Positions 55-21,933 of a stretch of 21,933 nt of DNA are shown here, in pieces (position 1 is the first letter of the stretch; every line of letters begins with the position of its first letter). Both the position numbers and the translations under genes were made by a program. The notes beneath the pieces are model-generated. The model did not search any database. It was not told the DNA's origin and saw nothing but the letters and a program-made list of their open reading frames with translations. Origin of the DNA: a virus (Duplodnaviria > Heunggongvirae > Uroviricota > Caudoviricetes); IMG/VR virus record IMGVR_UViG_3300046534_001355, one strand, 5' to 3'.

Positions 55-81
55 AAAAAATAAGCCCGTGTAAGGGATATT
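55..81. other. attL: attL core (P2 attP-like 27-bp core, one mismatch to my recollection of it)
   Basis: Sequence AAAAAATAAGCCCGTGTAAGGGATATT about 80 bp beyond the int 3' end, matching the P2 core AAAAAATAAGCCCGTGTAAGGGAGATT as I recall it; exact boundaries uncertain. Confidence 0.5.
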
Positions 82-3478: not shown

Positions 3479-3750
3479 GTATTCGTATTGAAATTGGCGA
3501 ACGTTATGTCGTTACCAGTGACAGCTTTCAGTTTATTCTCCACGAGAAAAAGAGAGCGGAAAGCGGTAAAAACGCCGGTCAGGAATGGCTGGCGGTGGTT
3601 GGTTATTACCCGAAATTAAGCCAGCTCGTTTCCGGCCTGATGCATCACGATATTCTTACCGGAAGCGCAAAGTCTTTTGCTGATTTAAACGCGCAGGTTG
3701 AGCAACTCAGCAAGCGTTGTTCAGAGGCTTTTGGCTCATATGGCCGTTAA
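3475..3750 (+). CDS. Hypothetical early-operon protein (P2 orf83 region)
   Basis: 91-aa ORF overlapping the start of A. Confidence 0.5.
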   Translation: MSIRIEIGERYVVTSDSFQFILHEKKRAESGKNAGQEWLAVVGYYPKLSQLVSGLMHHDILTGSAKSFADLNAQVEQLSKRCSEAFGSYGR

Positions 3751-6022
3751 AGCCTCCGGGCGTTTTGTCCCTCCGTCAGCATTTGCCGCAGGCACCGGTA
3801 AGACGTTTACCGGTGCTTATGCATGGAACGCGCCACGCGAGGCCGTCGGGCGCGAAAGACCCCTTACACGTGACGAGATGCGTCAGGTGCAAGGTGTTTT
3901 ATCCACGATTAACCGCCTGCCTTACTTTTTGCGCTCGCTGTTTACTTCACACTATGACTACATCCGGCGCAATAAAAGCCCGGTGCACGGGTTTTATTTC
4001 CTCACATCCACTTTTCAGCGTCGTTTATGGCCGCGCATTGAGCGTGTGAATCAGCGCCATGAAATGAACACCGACGCGTCGTTGCTGTTTCTGGCAGAGC
4101 GTGACCACTATGCGCGCCTGCCGGGAATGAATGACAAGGAGCTGAAAAAGTTTGCCGCCCGTATCTCATCGCAGCTTTTCATGATGTATGAGGAACTCAG
4201 CGATGCCTGGGTGGATGCACATGGCGAAAAAGAATCGCTGTTTACGGATGAGGCGCAGGCTCACCTCTATGGTCATGTTGCTGGCGCTGCACGTGCTTTC
4301 AATATTTCCCCGCTTTACTGGAAAAAATACCGTAAAGGACAGATGACCACGAGGCAGGCATATTCTGCCATTGCCCGTCTGTTTAACGATGAGTGGTGGA
4401 CTCATCAGCTCAAAGGCCAGCGTATGCGCTGGCATGAGGCGTTACTGATTGCTGTCGGGGAGGTCAATAAAGACCGTTCTCCTTATGCCAGTAAACATGC
4501 CATTCGTGATGTGCGTGCACGCCGCCAGGCAAATCTGGAATTTCTTAAATCGTGTGATCTCGAAAACAGGGAAACCGGCGAGCGCATCGACCTTATCAGT
4601 AAGGTGATGGGCAGTATTTCTAATCCTGAAATTCGCCGGATGGAGCTGATGAACACCATTGCCGGTATTGAGCGTTACGCCGCAGCAGAGGGTGATGTGG
4701 GGATGTTTATCACGCTGACCGCGCCGTCAAAGTATCACCCGACACGTCAGGTTGGAAAAGGCGAAAGTAAAACCGTCCAGCTAAATCACGGCTGGAACGA
4801 TGAGGCATTTAATCCAAAGGATGCGCAGCGTTATCTCTGCCGTATCTGGAGCCTGATGCGCACGGCATTCAAGGATAATGATTTACAGGTCTACGGTTTG
4901 CGTGTCGTCGAGCCACATCACGACGGAACGCCGCACTGGCATATGATGCTTTTTTGTAATCCGCGCCAGCGTAACCAGATTATCGAAATCATGCGTCGCT
5001 ATGCGCTCAAAGAGGATGGCGACGAAAGAGGAGCCGCGCGAAACCGTTTTCAGGCAAAACACCTTAATCGGGGCGGTGCTGCGGGGTATATCGCGAAATA
5101 CATCTCAAAAAACATCGACGGCTATGCACTGGATGGTCAGCTCGATAACGATACCGGCAGACCTCTGAAAGATACTGCCGCGGCTGTTACTGCATGGGCG
5201 TCAACGTGGCGCATCCCGCAATTTAAAACGGTTGGTCTGCCGACAATGGGGGCTTACCGTGAACTACGCAAATTGCCTCGCGGCGTCAGCATTGCTGATG
5301 AGTTTGACGAACGCGTCGAGGCTGCACGCGCTGCCGCAGACAGTGGCGATTTTGCGTTGTATATCAGTGCGCAGGGTGGGGCAAATGTTCCGCGCGATTG
5401 CCAGACTGTCAGAGTCGCCCGTAGCCCGTCGGATGAAGTTAACGAGTACGAGGAAGAAGTCGAGAGAGTGGTCGGCATTTACGCGCCGCATCTCGGCGCG
5501 CGTCATATTCATATCACCAGAACGACGGACTGGCGCATTGTGCCGAAAGTTCCGGTCGTGGAGCCTTTGACTTTAAAAAGCGGCATCGCCGCGCCTCGGA
5601 GTCCTGTCAATAACTGTGGAAAGCTCACCGGTGGTGATACTTCGTTATCGGCTCCCACACCGACTGAGCATGCTGCAGCGGTGTTAAATTTTATAGATGA
5701 AGGGATTCTAAGTTGGACCGAGCCAGGCATTATGAAGGTACTTAGAGACTTATTGAGTAATGAACTGAAATGCAGTAATCGTTCACAGCAGAGCTTTACT
5801 CCTTTCAATGGTCGAAGCTACTTTCCTGCCCCATCCGCCCGGTTGACAAGGCAGGAGAGAAAGACTATCCCGAAAATTAAGGTTCTTCTTGCACAAAGTG
5901 ACATTCAGGCTAGTTATTGGGAGCTTGAAGCTCTCGCTCGCGGAGCTGTTTTGGATTTTGGGCATAAGCGTTTTAAATTTGATACCGATATCGACTTTTT
6001 TGACAGACAGCGTGAGTGGTAG
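3740..6022 (+). CDS. A: Replication initiation protein A (rolling-circle nickase), divergent AT-rich 3' end
   Basis: Start taken at MAVKASGRF (ATG 3740), not the track start 3698. HUH-like motif PHWHMMLF and two-tyrosine motif GYIAKYISK seen. The last ~110 codons (from about 5690) are clearly more AT-rich than the rest. Confidence 0.88.
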   Translation: MAVKASGRFVPPSAFAAGTGKTFTGAYAWNAPREAVGRERPLTRDEMRQVQGVLSTINRLPYFLRSLFTSHYDYIRRNKSPVHGFYFLTSTFQRRLWPRIERVNQRHEMNTDASLLFLAERDHYARLPGMNDKELKKFAARISSQLFMMYEELSDAWVDAHGEKESLFTDEAQAHLYGHVAGAARAFNISPLYWKKYRKGQMTTRQAYSAIARLFNDEWWTHQLKGQRMRWHEALLIAVGEVNKDRSPYASKHAIRDVRARRQANLEFLKSCDLENRETGERIDLISKVMGSISNPEIRRMELMNTIAGIERYAAAEGDVGMFITLTAPSKYHPTRQVGKGESKTVQLNHGWNDEAFNPKDAQRYLCRIWSLMRTAFKDNDLQVYGLRVVEPHHDGTPHWHMMLFCNPRQRNQIIEIMRRYALKEDGDERGAARNRFQAKHLNRGGAAGYIAKYISKNIDGYALDGQLDNDTGRPLKDTAAAVTAWASTWRIPQFKTVGLPTMGAYRELRKLPRGVSIADEFDERVEAARAAADSGDFALYISAQGGANVPRDCQTVRVARSPSDEVNEYEEEVERVVGIYAPHLGARHIHITRTTDWRIVPKVPVVEPLTLKSGIAAPRSPVNNCGKLTGGDTSLSAPTPTEHAAAVLNFIDEGILSWTEPGIMKVLRDLLSNELKCSNRSQQSFTPFNGRSYFPAPSARLTRQERKTIPKIKVLLAQSDIQASYWELEALARGAVLDFGHKRFKFDTDIDFFDRQREW

Positions 6023-6110: not shown

Positions 6111-7334
6111 ATGAGCATGGTTGAATGGATAAGCCACGAGAAAAAAGATAGCCTGATACTATTTGTACATGGATTAAATGGTGGTTTGGAAACATGGAAC
6201 TTTAATAAAGAAATTTCATTTCCAAAACTATTAGCAGAAGATGAAGATATTAGCAACGTATTTGATATTGCATGTTTCAATTATTTTACTAAATTCACAC
6301 AAACGTATGCTAAAACGTCAGGATTCTTGGCTCGTATTTTCTTTAAGAAAAATAAGTTAGAGAGAAATTTACCAACTGATGAAATAGCTGAGTTATTGTA
6401 TACTGAGATTAGAGTAACACTAAGTGATTACTCTCGAATTATAATAATCGCCCATAGTATGGGGGGGTTAATATCAAAAAATCTAATTCTAAAAAAAGTT
6501 GAGCATGAGGAACAATCTAATATAATTGGATTCATTTCGTTAGCAGTCCCTCACTTTGGTGCTAAATTAGCGAATATAACTTCAATGGTATCTTCAAATG
6601 CTCAGTTAGTAGATCTTGGATTGTTAAGTGAAGCGACTGATACATTGAATAGGCGCTGGATAAATTGTAGCAAAAAACTTCCTATCACTAGATATGTTTA
6701 TGGATCTCATGACACTATAGTCGATAAAAAAAGCGCATTACCGATGGATAGTGAACGACATAACTCAATTGCAGTTAATGAAGGGCATAGCTCAATTTGC
6801 AAGCCCGAAAATAGCTCGTCTACAGTGTTTGTTGCGGTAAAGCAATTTATTCAGCAGATAAATTTAGAAGCACCCAAGAAGATTTGCGTTGAGCGTTTTT
6901 CTGATGATAAACAATATGATAATGAGTATTTCGTCTTAAAAATGATTGTCGCAGATATACATCAGGATATCGCTCTGCATGCAAAGGAATATTATTATAA
7001 TGCTGAGCTTGCGAGAAATATTTTTACGAGTGATTACGATAGAAAACAACTTGGTCATTTGTATTCTAAAATAAGGGAGATTTACCAGGAAGAGTATGAG
7101 CAATACATTGCAAATTCAATTTCCCCAGATAAATTTATTGCTGCTGTTCATAGACGAATAACCCAGGAGGATAAGTCGTCGTTAGATTCTCTTATAAAAA
7201 GTTTGGAAACGATACATAAGAAAGGAATGTTGCATCAACTGGCTAACAAAAATGACAGGGATATTGTCTGGTCATCTGAAACCAGCGTAGAAACTTTGGA
7301 GCAATTACGGCGAGGTAATCATGAAGAAAAATAA
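6111..7334 (+). CDS. Lipase-like alpha/beta hydrolase fused to a C-terminal helical domain; candidate defence effector (LmuA-like position)
   Basis: FVHGLNGG oxyanion-hole-like motif; nucleophile elbow AHSMGG (Ser116, nt 6456-6458), identical to the Bacillus lipase A pentapeptide; later GSHDTIVD and EGHSSI supply candidate Asp/His. AT-rich; first gene of a 3-gene overlapping operon. Confidence 0.7.
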   Translation: MSMVEWISHEKKDSLILFVHGLNGGLETWNFNKEISFPKLLAEDEDISNVFDIACFNYFTKFTQTYAKTSGFLARIFFKKNKLERNLPTDEIAELLYTEIRVTLSDYSRIIIIAHSMGGLISKNLILKKVEHEEQSNIIGFISLAVPHFGAKLANITSMVSSNAQLVDLGLLSEATDTLNRRWINCSKKLPITRYVYGSHDTIVDKKSALPMDSERHNSIAVNEGHSSICKPENSSSTVFVAVKQFIQQINLEAPKKICVERFSDDKQYDNEYFVLKMIVADIHQDIALHAKEYYYNAELARNIFTSDYDRKQLGHLYSKIREIYQEEYEQYIANSISPDKFIAAVHRRITQEDKSSLDSLIKSLETIHKKGMLHQLANKNDRDIVWSSETSVETLEQLRRGNHEEK

Positions 7335-7833
7335 CTTGCCGTATATACCTCTTGATGAAGAGTATAGTTTGAATTTTGCTATGCTTGCCATTGCTATATC
7401 TATATTATCTCATAGCAAAAAAGGAGTGTTGTCATTAGATATTAATAAAATACAAATTTTTATGTATCTGATAAAAAATCCATCAAAAATTGATTGTGCT
7501 CTTACAGTTTCGGGGAAAAAGCCTGCTTGTGTCGAGTCCCAGTTAACTTATACAATAAAGAGTTTTTCATCAAATGTAGATATCTTATTCGACAATTCCA
7601 AAGTGAAATATCTTATAAAAATTATGTCATTGCGGGGATTGCTCTCAGCTGAGAAAAAAAATAATGAGAGTGTTAAATTATTTTTATCTGAAAAAGGTAA
7701 GGAATTTGCTAGCTCATTGACTGATGGATATTTTAAAGAAATAAAACGACTAGCCGAAGCATTGTTACCGCTACAAGCATTGCCTACCTCTAAGTTAAAC
7801 TCTGTTATAAACAAAGTCTTCAAGGAGAAATGA
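7321..7833 (+). CDS. Small middle-gene protein of the operon (LmuC-like position)
   Basis: 170-aa ORF overlapping the upstream stop by 14 nt and the downstream start by 4 nt (ATGA), implying translational coupling; no recognisable motifs. Confidence 0.55.
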   Translation: MKKNNLPYIPLDEEYSLNFAMLAIAISILSHSKKGVLSLDINKIQIFMYLIKNPSKIDCALTVSGKKPACVESQLTYTIKSFSSNVDILFDNSKVKYLIKIMSLRGLLSAEKKNNESVKLFLSEKGKEFASSLTDGYFKEIKRLAEALLPLQALPTSKLNSVINKVFKEK

Positions 7834-9800
7834 TGAAATCATATCTCAATATCAATAGTTTGATTCTTGTTGGCGTTCGTAAAAACTACGTCACTACTTT
7901 TTATAAAGGTCTCAATGTTATCTACGGAGACTCTGACACAGGTAAGTCAAGTATTCTGGAGTTTATTAATTATCTTTTAGGTGCTAGTTCTATAGATTTA
8001 GCAGATGAAATAAAAACATCAGTAAACTATGCTGCTCTTGAAGTAGTGATCAATGATACTGTATTCACAATCGTAAGAGATATCTATGATCATAAAAAAT
8101 CAATAGAAGTTTATCGTTGTAAGTTTGATGATTTACATAAACACTTTCCGAAAAAATACGCTCCTAATTATAGCCCCTTATCAAATGTTGATGGCGTTTT
8201 TTCGGAGTTTTTACTTGATAGTCTTAATTTTCCAAAAATTGAAATTAAGGTGTCTCCTTCTAAAGCACATTCACAGATGCGCAGGTTAAGCTTTAGAAAT
8301 ATATATAAATTTGTTTATGTAAGTCAGGATGATATTGGTAGTAAATCATTCTTACGATTGGAGGATTGGTCCCGTTACGCATTTACGAAAGAAGTTTTTA
8401 AATACATGTTCAATGTGTTGGATGAAAGCATCGCCAGACTCCAAGGTGAAATATCTGCAAAAAGTAGTTTAGTAACGGAACTAAATAAGAAGTATCAGAT
8501 AATATCTGAATTTCTTCGCGATACAGACTATGAAACAATTGAATCAATTGATGATGAGATTAATAGGATAGATCTTATTTTAGAAGAACTTGTTGCAGGT
8601 TTGTCTGCTCTCGATAAAAATATGAAAGCGGATTCCATGCAGTATACAGAATTGAAAGATGCCCACAATTTTATTTCGCTTAAATACAAGGAGTGCATAT
8701 TAAATATTAGCACGCTTGAGGATAAGATTGATAAATATTCGCGGTTAAAAAATGACTATGATAATGATATTGAAAAACTCAAAGCGATTAAAACAGCAAA
8801 TTCTCGCATTGGTGTATTGGATAAGGAAGTATTTTCCTGTCCGATCTGTGATAGCCACATTAAAATAGATGATTCCGATTTTCCATTTGAAATTTCATCA
8901 GAAAAAGATCTTAATGAAGAGTTGAATTCACTTAGTCGACGTAGACGAAATATTAATGACATGATCTCAGAAATGTCATTTAAATTAAAAAAAGAATCTG
9001 GTTATAAAAAAGAATTAGATGAACAACTTGACGAGTTGAGAGAGTTAATTGACGAAGAAAGCCAGTCAATGATTACACCATTCTTGACTCAGAGAGATTT
9101 TTATATTAAAGAGATATCAAAAAACGAGAAGGTTAGGGAGCAGTTAGTAAAAGATTTGAAGGTTAGAAACCAGCAAGAGGAACTGCTTGAAAAGCATCAG
9201 GTACTGATAAAAGATATTGAAACATTAACTGAACGCTTGGATGCGTTAAAGAAAAACGCACCTAGTATGGAAGGCATTTTACAAGGTTTAGGTGATAGAT
9301 TTAGTCAGTATTTGAAGGGTATTAATATCAAAAACAGAACGGGGATAAAAATCTCTGAAAGATATTACACCCCTGTTATAAGAGGAAAGGAATATTTTAA
9401 AATAACGTCCGGAGGTTTGAGAACTATTTCTTCTATTGGGTATCTTTTGTCTATTCTTGATTATGCAATAGACCATAATGTTAACCATCCTTTACTTTTG
9501 ATATTTGATACGGTTGGTAAATATTTAGGGAAACAGACCAAGGAAAAATACTCAAAAGAAACTCTTGCAGTCGAGGATGACCTTGAGGGGATGTCAGACC
9601 CGATGAAGTATCAAAATATTTATGAGCAACTATTGAATACAGTTCAAAAAGCAGAAAGAAAAAATGTTCCGTGCCAGATTATATTAGTTGATAATGATTT
9701 GCCTAATTCGTTTTCTACTGGTGAACTTTCGAATATTATCGCTCATTATAGCTCGGTTGGTGAGGATGGTTTGCCTTTAGGTTTAATTGATGACCTTTAA
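7830..9800 (+). CDS. SMC/Rad50-like ABC ATPase with coiled-coil and CxxC hook (LmuB-like)
   Basis: Walker A GDSDTGKSS (res 33-40); long charged heptad-rich middle; CPIC at res 337-340, the midpoint; ABC signature-like TSGGLRT (~res 526); Walker B-like LLLIFDT (~res 555-561). Confidence 0.75.
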   Translation: MMKSYLNINSLILVGVRKNYVTTFYKGLNVIYGDSDTGKSSILEFINYLLGASSIDLADEIKTSVNYAALEVVINDTVFTIVRDIYDHKKSIEVYRCKFDDLHKHFPKKYAPNYSPLSNVDGVFSEFLLDSLNFPKIEIKVSPSKAHSQMRRLSFRNIYKFVYVSQDDIGSKSFLRLEDWSRYAFTKEVFKYMFNVLDESIARLQGEISAKSSLVTELNKKYQIISEFLRDTDYETIESIDDEINRIDLILEELVAGLSALDKNMKADSMQYTELKDAHNFISLKYKECILNISTLEDKIDKYSRLKNDYDNDIEKLKAIKTANSRIGVLDKEVFSCPICDSHIKIDDSDFPFEISSEKDLNEELNSLSRRRRNINDMISEMSFKLKKESGYKKELDEQLDELRELIDEESQSMITPFLTQRDFYIKEISKNEKVREQLVKDLKVRNQQEELLEKHQVLIKDIETLTERLDALKKNAPSMEGILQGLGDRFSQYLKGINIKNRTGIKISERYYTPVIRGKEYFKITSGGLRTISSIGYLLSILDYAIDHNVNHPLLLIFDTVGKYLGKQTKEKYSKETLAVEDDLEGMSDPMKYQNIYEQLLNTVQKAERKNVPCQIILVDNDLPNSFSTGELSNIIAHYSSVGEDGLPLGLIDDL

Positions 9801-10115: not shown

Positions 10116-11090
10116 TCAGCCGTTGTCAGTGTCCAGTGAGTAGTTTTTAAAGCGGATGACCTCCTGACCGAGCCAGCCGTTTATCTCACGGATCCTGTCC
10201 TGTAACGGGATAAGCTCATTGCGGACAAAGACCTTTGCCACTTTCTCAATATCACCCAGCGACCCGACGTTCTCCGGCTTGCCGCCCATCAACTGAAAGG
10301 GGATGCGGTGCGCGTCCAGCAGGTCTGCGGCACTGGCTTTTTTGATATTAAAAAAATCGTCCTTCGTCGCCACTTCACTGAGCGGGATAATTTTAATGCC
10401 GTCGGCTTTTCCCTGTGGGGCATAGAGAAACAGGTTTTTAAAGTTGTTGCGGCCTTTCGACTTCACCATGTTTTCGCGAAGCATTTCGATATCGTTGCGA
10501 TCCTGCACGGCATCAGTGACGTACATGATGTATCCGGCATGTGCGCCGTTTTCGTAATACTTGCGGCGGAACAGCGTGGCCGACTCATTCAGCCAGGCAG
10601 AGTTAAGGGCGCTGAGATATTCCGGCAGGCCGTACAGCTCCTGATTAATATCGGGCTCCAGCAGGTGAAACACGGAACCGGGCGCGAAGGCTGTCGGTTC
10701 GTTGAAGGACGGCACCCACCAGTAAACATCCTCCTCCACGCCACGGCGGGTATATTTTGCCGGTGAGGTTTCCAGTCTGATGACCTTACCGGTGGTGCTG
10801 TAACGCTTTTCCAGAAACGCATTACCGAACACCAGAAAATCCAGCACAAAGCGGCTGAAATCCTGCTGGGAAAGTCGCCGAAAATCGCCAGTGTGCATCA
10901 GTTCGGTCTGTCGGAAGAAACCCGGAAAGACGGTAAGAAAATTGATTATCCGGCGCGTCCTCTGCTCGGCTTTACCGGTGAGGATGTGCAGATGATTGAA
11001 GAGATTATCCTGGCTCACCTTGAGCGTTAGTTTTATCCAGGCAGAGGCTGATGCGCAATTAAACATTGAGCGGCCATGCTGGTCGCTCAA
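10116..11090 (-). pseudogene. Q: Portal protein Q, apparently 5'-truncated remnant
   Basis: Minus-strand ORF with C-terminus next to cos as in P2. Only 324 codons (P2 Q about 344), begins with TTG inside a 12-bp-arm hairpin, and the upstream partner P (terminase) is absent. Confidence 0.6.
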
Positions 11091-17466: not shown

Positions 17467-18814
<1,348 letters not shown>

Positions 18815-19856: not shown

Positions 19857-21047
19857 ATGAGTGACTATCATCACGGCGTGCAGGTGCTGGAGATTAACGA
19901 CGGCACCCGCGTCATTTCCACCGTATCCACGGCCATTGTCGGCATGGTCTGCACGGCCAGCGATGCGGATGCGGAAACCTTCCCCGTCAATAAACCGGTG
20001 CTGATTACCAATGTACAGAGCGCAATTGCAAAGGCCGGTAAAAAAGGCACGCTGGCGGCGTCGTTGCAGGCTATCGCCGACCAGTCAAAACCGGTCACTG
20101 TTGTCGTGCGTGTGGAAGACGGCACCGGCGACGACGAGGAAACGAAACTCGCGCAGACCGTTTCCAATATCATCGGCACCACTGACGAAAACGGTCAGTA
20201 CACCGGACTGAAAGCCCTGATGGGGGCTGAGTCGGTTACCGGCGTTAAACCGCGCATTCTTGGTGTGCCGGGGCTGGACACCAAAGAGGTTGCCGTCGCA
20301 CTGGCATCGGTATGCCAGGAACTGAATGCATTCGGGTATATCAGCGCATGGGGCTGTAAAACCATTTCCGAGGCAAAAGCCTACCGTCAGAATTTCAGCC
20401 AGCGTGAGCTGATGGTCATCTGGCCGGATTTCCTCGCATGGGATACGGTTACCAGTACCACTGCCACCGCGTATGCCACCGCCCGTGCGCTGGGGCTGCG
20501 TGCCAAAATCGACCAGGAGCAGGGCTGGCATAAAACGCTGTCCAACGTCGGGGTAAATGGTGTTACCGGCATCAGCGCCTCTGTATTCTGGGATTTGCAG
20601 AAGTCCGGCACTGATGCTGACCTGCTTAACGAGTCAGGCATCACTACGCTGATTCGCCGCGACGGCTTCCGCTTCTGGGGTAACCGTACCTGCTCTGATG
20701 ACCCGCTGTTCCTCTTTGAAAGCTACACCCGCACCGCGCAGGTACTGGCCGACACGATGGCCGAGGCGCACATGTGGGCTATTGATAAGCCAATTACCGC
20801 AACGCTGATTCGTGACATCATTGATGGCATTAATGCCAAATTCCGCGAACTGAAAAACAACGGTTATATCGTGGATGGCACATGCTGGTTCAGTGAAGAA
20901 GCCAATGATGCGGAAACCCTCAAGGCCGGAAAACTGTATATCGACTACGACTATACCCCGGTGCCTCCTCTCGAAAACCTGACCCTGCGCCAGCGTATTA
21001 CTTCCAGATACCTGGCAAGTCTGGTTACCTCGGTTAACAGCAATTAA
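19857..21047 (+). CDS. FI: Tail sheath protein FI (396 aa)
   Basis: Start at MSDYHHGVQVLEINDG (ATG 19857, GGAG upstream), not the track start 19707; length and sequence match P2 gpFI as I recall it. Confidence 0.9.
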   Translation: MSDYHHGVQVLEINDGTRVISTVSTAIVGMVCTASDADAETFPVNKPVLITNVQSAIAKAGKKGTLAASLQAIADQSKPVTVVVRVEDGTGDDEETKLAQTVSNIIGTTDENGQYTGLKALMGAESVTGVKPRILGVPGLDTKEVAVALASVCQELNAFGYISAWGCKTISEAKAYRQNFSQRELMVIWPDFLAWDTVTSTTATAYATARALGLRAKIDQEQGWHKTLSNVGVNGVTGISASVFWDLQKSGTDADLLNESGITTLIRRDGFRFWGNRTCSDDPLFLFESYTRTAQVLADTMAEAHMWAIDKPITATLIRDIIDGINAKFRELKNNGYIVDGTCWFSEEANDAETLKAGKLYIDYDYTPVPPLENLTLRQRITSRYLASLVTSVNSN

Positions 21048-21059
21048 GGAGCCTGACCG

Positions 21060-21839
21060 ATGGCAATGCCGCGCAAACTCAAGTTAATGAACGTCTTTCT
21101 GAACGGCTACAGCTATCAGGGCGTTGCAAAGTCCGTCACGCTGCCAAAACTGACCCGTAAGCTCGAAAACTATCGCGGTGCGGGGATGAACGGCAGCGCA
21201 CCGGTAGACCTCGGCCTTGATGACGATGCGCTGTCAATGGAGTGGTCGCTCGGTGGATTCCCGGATTCGGTTATCTGGGAGCTTTACGCCGCAACCGGTG
21301 TGGATGCCGTGCCGATTCGTTTTGCAGGCTCTTACCAGCGCGACGATACAGGCGTAACGGCAAAGTGGTTACACACCAAAGACCCGAAACCGCAAAAGCA
21401 GAAGGTAAAACTGAAACGCAAAAAGAAAGAGAAACACCTGCGCGCACTGGAGCACCCGAACGCGAAACCGGTCAGGCAGAAGAAAGCGCCTAAAGTACCG
21501 GAAGCGCGTGAAGGTGAATACATGGCCGGTGAGGCTGACAACGTTTTTGCCCTGACCACGGTATATGCCACGAAAGCGCAGGCCATGCGCGCCGCTCAGG
21601 CGAAGTGGGATAAGCTGCAACGGGGCGTTGCGGAGTTCTCCATCAGTCTGGCTACCGGTCGTGCTGATATTTACACGGAAACACCGGTTAAAGTGTCAGG
21701 CTTTAAGCGCGTCATAGACGAGCAGGACTGGACAATCACTAAGGTGACACATTTTCTGAATAATAGCGGCTTCACGACGTCCCTGGAGCTTGAGGTCAGG
21801 CTTTCTGATGTGGAGTACGAAACAGAAGATGATGAGTGA
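21060..21839 (+). pseudogene. Chimeric ORF: tail tube FII N-terminal 98 codons fused in frame to the C-terminal part of tail protein D
   Basis: Residues 1-98 (MAMPRKLKLMNVFLNGYSYQ...SYQRDDTG) match FII; from VTAKWLHTKDPKPQKQ... to ...LELEVRLSDVEYETEDDE resembles the C-terminal third of gpD; junction at about nt 21353; ogr follows directly, as after D in P2. Confidence 0.6.
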
Positions 21840-21920
21840 TGTTTTTATTTTATCTGTTTGTTTTATAAGGATAATTTAACTAAAATGGCACCATCAACCA
21901 AACCGGAAGAGGTGCTCGCG

Positions 21921-21933
21921 ATGTTTCATTGTC
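21921..21933 (+). CDS. ogr: ogr late-gene activator, 5' end only (MFHC...)
   Basis: ATG TTT CAT TGT at the window edge, matching the N-terminus of P2 Ogr as I recall it (MFHCPLC...) and the expected position after D; only 4 codons visible. Confidence 0.45.

Follow-up and report, generated by a model that had tools for sequence, protein, structure and literature searches.

The window (the whole stretch of viral DNA that we analysed, 21,933 nucleotides in length) carries near its right end an uninterrupted open reading frame (ORF) of 259 codons (21060-21839, plus strand), which starts with the ATG at 21060 and stops with the TGA at 21837-21839. What does this ORF encode, and how did it come to exist? 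An earlier note on this DNA, made from the letters and their translations, had read the first 98 codons as the tail tube gene FII of phage P2 and the remainder as the C-terminal third of gpD, joined by a deletion. Comparison with the proteins of an intact P2-like prophage in Escherichia coli strain 2D confirmed that the ORF consists of FII residues 1-98 followed in frame by gpD residues ~226-387. Residues 1-98 matched strain 2D FII at 98 of 98 positions, and residues 96-259 matched gpD residues 224-387 at 164 of 164, so that the protein alignments place the breakpoint where it had been proposed. The size of the gpD share had to be corrected, as ~42% of the protein is retained rather than a third. 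At the nucleotide level, the FII-derived part of the window was 99.0% identical to FII nt 1-301 of phage P2_4B2, and the D-derived part was 99.5% identical to the D-ogr region of strain 2D.

The domain matches agreed with this composition. Phage_tube (PF04985) matched ORF residues 4-100 (profile positions 1-95 of 165, E 4e-26) and Phage_GPD (PF05954) matched residues 144-236 (profile positions 214-304 of 305, with 27.7 bits, just below the cut-off of 30.1). From these profile spans, the ORF comprises the first ~57% of the tube family and the last ~30% of the GPD family. No single Pfam family matched along the full length. That the ORF arose from an error of assembly or annotation, or belongs to one natural protein family, has a negligible probability and is already refuted: the junction has the same sequence, at 100% identity, in 11 complete genomes that were assembled independently, the exact 259-residue protein occurs on at least 1000 contigs, and the two halves fall into unrelated families and match separate proteins of intact prophages.

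The surroundings of the ORF are those of FII on one side and of D on the other. It lies directly 3′ of the intact tail sheath gene FI (19857-21047, plus strand; "phage tail sheath protein" in RefSeq, with Pfam matches to Phage_sheath_1, Phage_sheath_1C, and Gp18_domIII_N), the first gene of the P_F late operon that holds the fusion. The native FII ribosome-binding site, AAGGAG (21046-21051, plus strand), is positioned 8 nt before the ATG and is the same in intact relatives. Downstream, as the earlier note had recognized, the late-gene activator ogr (ogrK) follows directly; it starts at 21921, or at 21886 on a longer reading, and runs past the end of the window at 21933 (plus strand; from RefSeq, which annotates this same sequence in REL606). 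Near the fusion ORF in the identical REL606 region, RefSeq shows none of the genes E, T, and U. In GenBank, the 259-residue protein is a single hypothetical product, ACT39646.1, "putative phage protein (D protein)", while RefSeq splits the ORF into two pseudogene fragments, a tube protein "missing C-terminus" and a D protein "missing N-terminus".

In origin, the window is a P2-like prophage that E. coli B carries in defective form at locI, a P2 attachment (att) site. It was 100% identical to the corresponding region of E. coli B strains (REL606, B, ATCC 11303, AS19, and drug-selected B derivatives), which in REL606 lies between the integrase gene and yegQ. The attL core, AAAAAATAAGCCCGTGTAAGGGA, is the P2 locI att core and marks the left end of the prophage (55-77, plus strand) as a 23-nt exact repeat of the region after ogr. 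In REL606, the second copy follows ogr at position 21182 of the extracted locus, with the full 27-nt core at attR. Both this 27-nt core and the P2 gene order identify a P2-like prophage at locI, and identity to Peduovirus genomes was 93-97% at the nucleotide level. By the RefSeq annotation, int-C-cox-B-A, V-W-J-I-H, and FI are present, and the head, lysis, and tape-measure genes are gone; the gene set is not that of a viable phage. Given the complete identity to B strains and the position at locI beside yegQ, we identify this element with the long-known, defective, P2-related prophage of strain B from which P2 Hy dis arose. Descriptions of it were reportedly given by Cohen in 1959 and by Studier et al. 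in 2009. The literature on E. coli B, P2, and Hy dis that we covered, which comprised sources other than these two and Liu & Haggard-Ljungquist 1994, contained no description of the FII::D junction.

Among 5426 complete E. coli genomes, the exact FII::D junction occurs in 11, all of B lineage by name or by identity; the separate FII and D halves are found in intact prophages of about 2100 genomes. One of the 11, NZ_CP029371.1, is labelled "Escherichia coli strain C, cow's milk" and matches E. coli B at 100% identity over both the B-specific junction and the cargo region, which may mean that a strain of the B lineage has been given a different name. In BL21(DE3) (NC_012971.2, 2064588-2066597), yegQ lies directly beside yegR with no prophage between them. 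Thus, B-lineage strains differ by the presence or absence of the whole ~22-kb element.

Two other features of the prophage were seen along the way. Just after the replication gene A (3740-6022), at the position of the P2 old/tin cargo hot spot, lie three to four genes at ~6111-9800, including an AAA ATPase, that RefSeq names an "ABC-three component" system; going by these names, the system is probably anti-phage defence cargo. Between the tail fibre gene H and FI, a family-2 glycosyltransferase gene on the minus strand contains in its 5′ region a perfect tetranucleotide tract, (CTGG) x 29.8, at 18542-18660. For the same 2401-bp query, the region with this tract ranged from 2359 to 2567 bp across sequenced B strains, a pattern that looks like slipped-strand phase variation of a prophage-borne glycosyltransferase. 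The window and REL606 are not collinear base for base, as their offset is +1019 to the left of the tract and +1059 to its right. From this difference, the window has ~10 more CTGG units than REL606.

We aligned the window with intact relatives to define the deletion. Against phage P2_4B2, it resolved into two collinear blocks, FI-FII up to 21360 and D-ogr from 21346. The blocks share 15 nt of the window, and 4320 bp separate them in the phage. The gap was 4321 bp in the intact prophage of strain 2D, which is likewise at the yegQ site. A deletion had been predicted at ~5 kb; it is present, and is smaller than that. Relative to the intact genomes, FII codons 99-172, E and its E′ frameshift extension, the tape-measure gene T, U, and D codons 1-~225 are lost, which bears out the proposed removal of the tape measure, the tube C-terminus, E, T, and U.

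Both endpoints share a short string, which in P2_4B2 is ATACCGGCG (FII, GAT ACC GGC G; D, TAT ACC GGC G) and which in strain 2D matches at 8 of 9 positions, so that its general form is ATAC(C/A)GGCG. This is the short TG-containing microhomology that had been suspected in both genes, since it carries Thr-Gly codons, in equal codon phase in FII and D. The copies lie at FII codons 96-98 and D codons 224-226, and an extended match covers 13 of 15 nt. Where the FII parent reads GAC GAT ACC GGC GAA ACG G and the D parent reads GCC TAT AC(C/A) GGC GTA AC(A/G) G, the window reads GAC GAT ACA GGC GTA ACG G. Since the G at 21345 is specific to FII and the T at 21355 is the first base specific to D in every comparison, the crossover falls within 21346-21354 (plus strand), the interval ATACAGGCG in our junction alignments to P2_4B2 and strain 2D. 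To its left, 21060-21345 (plus strand) is FII-derived (codons 1-95 unambiguously, with FII identity continuing through codon 98 by way of the common string); to its right, 21355-21839 (plus strand) is gpD-derived (D codons ~228-387 and the stop, encoding a Lys-rich linker and the C-terminal domain). Positions 21346-21349 (ATAC) were identical in both parents in every comparison, and the A at 21350 is the D allele of strain 2D. Identical parental alleles in this interval would make the crossover span 9 nt; a difference at 21350, of the kind seen with strain 2D, would shorten it to 4 nt (ATAC). The window retains one copy of the string, with contiguous flanks and no filler DNA. A direct repeat at the endpoints, a single retained copy, and the lack of filler are the hallmarks of microhomology-mediated deletion.

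A model that accommodates these data, and that we hold to be very probably correct, is that the ORF is the relic of one spontaneous deletion, 4.32 kb long, within the tail operon of a P2-like prophage carried by the E. coli B ancestor. A P2-like prophage would have integrated at locI in that ancestor, and a deletion would then have joined the two copies of ATAC(C/A)GGCG, exact over 4-9 nt, with one copy kept. Judged from the sequence of the junction, such a deletion is what recA-independent illegitimate recombination or replication slippage would be expected to yield. The outcome would be an in-frame FII(1-98)::D(226-387) fusion that remains in the FI operon and is preceded by FII's own ribosome-binding site. 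As exact 9-nt direct repeats are abundant in the operon (281 pairs in 6.6 kb), a deletion by slippage or illegitimate recombination needs no special cause. The intact reading frame is also accounted for. A random deletion has a 1/3 chance of being in frame, and here, because the repeat copies share codon phase, the in-frame fusion was automatic and is not evidence of selection. The fusion ORF is a deletion-derived chimeric pseudogene, a case of ordinary prophage decay that is already known and is present in public annotation.

The prophage contains a second deletion at 10869-10874, where a fragment of the portal gene Q (minus strand) meets the 3′ end of S, with G.GAAAG as the microhomology. 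This deletion removes the capsid, terminase, and lysis genes. It is unrelated to the FII::D event and shows ordinary microhomology; with two such deletions, the prophage is decaying in general.

Could the fusion protein do anything? The tube family has a profile of ~165 positions and P2 FII has 172 residues; the FII part of the fusion keeps ~57% of the tube fold, lacks its C-terminal 74 residues, and is a fragment unable to form a tube. The gpD part reaches neither the full PF05954 profile at its gathering score nor the N-terminal hub domains. The R2 pyocin baseplate protein 6u5h_C, a solved gpD homologue, aligns to D residues 14-230 and 270-371, which makes D 231-269 a linker. The fusion lacks D residues 1-~225, the stretch aligned to 6u5h_C residues 2-215. 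By this alignment, all that is left of D in the fusion is the P2-specific Lys-rich linker together with the C-terminal domain, without the 225 N-terminal residues that form the hub; the AlphaFold model of intact D is confident only at residues 12-189. Since neither half is a complete domain set, the fusion protein is in all likelihood a relic without function. The loss of T, E, and U, which takes away the tape measure and its chaperones, together with the portal/S deletion, leaves the prophage unable to make particles or tails, and because BL21(DE3) lacks the whole prophage, the fusion ORF is dispensable. Transcription of the ORF could occur if Ogr were active, as the region 5′ of FI is collinear with intact phages. 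The exact pattern TGT-N12-ACA of the Ogr site is absent upstream of FI in the window and in intact phages alike.

We considered whether the fusion protein might instead be a domesticated product, for example, a dominant-negative decoy against the assembly of tails or baseplates by superinfecting P2-like phages, or an aid to ogr expression. The frame, the ribosome-binding site, and the operon context are intact, many other remnants likewise keep the C-terminal segment of D together with ogr, and both halves are 100% identical in protein sequence to functional alleles, so that no decay after the deletion is visible that would prove neutrality. However, the phase of the common string dictates the in-frame outcome, and out-of-frame joins at the same D site exist, as in strain MB06022 (described below). 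Moreover, the junction is confined to one laboratory lineage, BL21(DE3) thrives without the prophage, and neither part is a complete fold. E. coli B also supports the growth of P2, given that P2 Hy dis originated in this host. Domestication is thus improbable, with only a slim chance of being right.

What remains of wider interest is that both breakpoints of the B fusion belong to a small set of positions that recur in P2-like prophages. We catalogued chimeras through two protein searches, the first with the fusion protein and the second with the C-terminal 105 residues of D. The catalogue is ORF-based. The second search, which returned mainly short proteins and is not an unbiased sample, revealed a hot spot at D codon 319. 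The start of the D segment was mapped for each junction and a left partner assigned, with 16 junctions read at the DNA level. Among the matches listed were dozens of chimeras in which differing P2 genes are fused to the C-terminal part of D; they comprise ~50 distinct junction types ending in D, of which ~36 use D codons 135, 226, 233, or 319.

The left partners at these four positions varied widely among the matches listed. D135 (^ASRN, where the caret marks the break) had five: V121, FI127, cox (out of frame), L, and one of no assigned gene. D226 (^TGVTAKW) had seven, namely, FII98 (strain B), FII49, J279, FI~250, FI~118, U133, and T153. Twelve were joined to D233 (^HTKD): FII49, V121, FI127, E50, E61, J113, an ASCH gene, A53, G75, two antisense points in a terminase gene, and one of no assigned gene. 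D319 (^AEFSIS) also had 12, which were ASCH, the same two terminase points, Cox, holin, A~45, D25, three of no assigned gene, the T gene (strain EC3), and the att core (K-12). Thus, the 225/226 endpoint of D is common to the B deletion and a minimum of six further deletions, which arose independently and have other left partners. On the window, D226 corresponds to the step between 21348 and 21349, D233 to that between 21371 and 21372, and D319 to that between 21629 and 21630; of the left sites, V121 falls between 12333 and 12334 and FII49 between 21206 and 21207.

Left endpoints were reused with different right endpoints. V121 was joined to D135 and D233; FI127 to D135, D233, and an internal FI site; FII49 to D226 and D233; and FII98 to D226, D237, and, in a divergent phage, D~67. 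Three further left sites were joined to both D233 and D319. In strain MB06022 (seawater, Galapagos), a prophage at the yegQ site has FII codon 49 (ending GCACCGGTA) joined out of frame to the D226 position (beginning CCGGCGTAACGG). Prophages bearing such junctions occur at the yegQ, fieF, and pflB-focA sites, which have unrelated att cores. Since the chromosomal sites differ in this way, the junctions are independent events; new pairings of left and right endpoints cannot arise through homologous recombination between deletion derivatives. Most of them fall at a TA step that is present in both parents, mostly in the form G-N-T-A^; the left sites read CGGTA^, CGATA^, or GCTTA^ and the D sites read GCGATA^GCC, CCTATA^CCGG, or TGGTTA^CAC. 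The exceptions are D319 (GCGTT^GCGGAG) and two of the partners. As the portal/S deletion has ordinary microhomology and no TA step, this signature is not a general property of the B prophage.

The other chimeras resemble the B fusion in that the N-terminus of a late gene is joined to a C-terminal part of D followed by ogr (for example, V121::D233, FI127::D135, U133::D226, T153::D226, and J279::D226), and MB06022, at the same locus as B, joins FII49 to the very D endpoint used in B. They differ in their left partners, in their prophage alleles, and often in their chromosomal sites. They also differ in microhomology, which is mostly 2-3 nt (the TA step) in the other chimeras and 8-9 nt at the B junction.

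Another remnant is the cryptic prophage PR-X (yegZ-ogrK) of E. coli K-12, which lies at the same chromosomal site as the B element and, like it, keeps the 3′ end of D, ogrK, and attR. Unlike the B element, PR-X retains only 219 nt of D (yegZ), and everything between attL and D319 is gone. At its left junction, the att core is broken after CCCGTGTA and joined to D codon 319. Thus, PR-X is the product of a different event, with a different breakpoint and extent. In the 2167811 region of MG1655, the break follows AAGCCCGTGTA and D319 begins GCAGAGTTCTCC; in strain EC3 (~5146 of the extracted locus), the same D319 endpoint is joined to the T gene. Single deletions that create in-frame hybrid ORFs in E. 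coli have also been described in evolution experiments, where interstitial deletions between paralogues gave rise to the chimeras cpsG-manB (in the REL606 long-term evolution experiment, LTEE) and icd-icdC (through loss of e14) (PMC13626634). Those deletions involved long homologous paralogues and yielded functional enzymes, whereas the B fusion joins unrelated proteins at a 9-nt string (PMC13626634).

We examined several explanations for the hot spots. Microhomology alone does not account for them, since most junctions share only the TA step. Among the matches listed, three of the 22 TA steps in D nt 1-705 take nearly all the events, and D sites with 5-6 nt of identity to the CGGTA left sites (TCGGTA at nt 539 and GCGGTA at nt 594) are unused. 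A filter at the protein level, by which only breaks at gpD domain boundaries would survive, seemed plausible for D226 and D233, which lie at the end of the N-terminal block just before the Lys-rich linker. However, D135 is at the end of a helix inside the confidently modelled domain (AlphaFold; the model is poor beyond residue 190), and out-of-frame and antisense partners use the same endpoints, which rules out such a filter.

Recombination by the integrase at secondary sites was rejected because the P2 att core is unlike the recurrent sites. Prophages at the fieF and pflB sites, whose att cores have at least 12 mismatches in 27 positions, nonetheless use the same D endpoints, and no complete E. 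coli genome has the locI att core joined to D135, D226, or D233. At the B junction, neither FII98 nor D226 is an att site, and the similarity to the core is limited to TA..GG.G. As the att core takes part only in the K-12 D319 junction, integrase is attractive as the cause of that junction and not as a general cause. Hairpin or stall potential was also unhelpful, as DNA folding energies around the 22 TA steps did not separate hot from cold sites. Pseudo-nick sites of the P2 A protein, an HUH nickase, may be a further candidate; the annotated cleavage site of PM2 (which is not P2's own ori nick sequence) was unlike the hot sites and had no match in gene A.

Recurrence of the breakpoints is real in the data sampled, and its mechanism is unexplained. 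One interpretation is that a site-preferential process, mediated by an enzyme or driven by DNA structure, deletes parts of P2-like prophages at a few positions, and that the B deletion (FII98 x D226) is one product of it. Such an undescribed process would act in independent lineages, at different chromosomal sites, and in any reading frame, with D135, D226, D233, D319, V121, FI127, FII49, FII98, the att core (GTGTA^), and others as sites that are joined in pairs. The concentration of ~36 of ~50 D-ending junction types (among the matches listed) on four positions, the reuse of left endpoints, the spread of the junctions over prophages at no fewer than three chromosomal sites, whose att cores are unrelated, and the out-of-frame and antisense partners all argue for it. 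So do the disuse of better-matching sites at nt 539 and 594 while only three of 22 TA steps are hot, and the joining of the K-12 D319 endpoint to the att core itself. Against it, no enzyme or motif emerged among the candidates examined: the att core is unlike the sites, prophages with other att cores use the same sites, attL is joined to D135, D226, or D233 in no genome, and hairpin energies fail to discriminate. The catalogue, being ORF-based and drawn from the matches listed, is a biased sample, and the 9-nt microhomology of the B junction (8/9 in strain 2D) is enough alone. We therefore regard this reading of the B junction as a tentative one, with appreciably less than an even chance. As the recurrence of D225/226 and of FII98 exceeds what random slippage at abundant microhomologies would give, a site-preferential process may have contributed to the spontaneous deletion that we consider the origin of the ORF.

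The fusion itself carries little wider weight, although from it one can see precisely how the tape-measure module disappeared from the classic defective P2 prophage of strain B. The 259-residue "D protein" ORF in annotations of REL606 and the LTEE is a chimeric relic, which RefSeq splits into two pseudogenes, and knowing its identity is useful for annotation and for reading mutations or expression at this locus. The recurrent D breakpoints, the only element of wider interest, could matter more. That they reflect a specific mechanism is a minority possibility in our estimate. If so, either a specific DNA-breaking or strand-transfer activity, of host or phage, or a strong structural hot spot would be at work; the decay of E. 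coli prophages would be partly directed rather than random; and it would be clear why many strains, including K-12, end with the same remnant of a D fragment and ogr.
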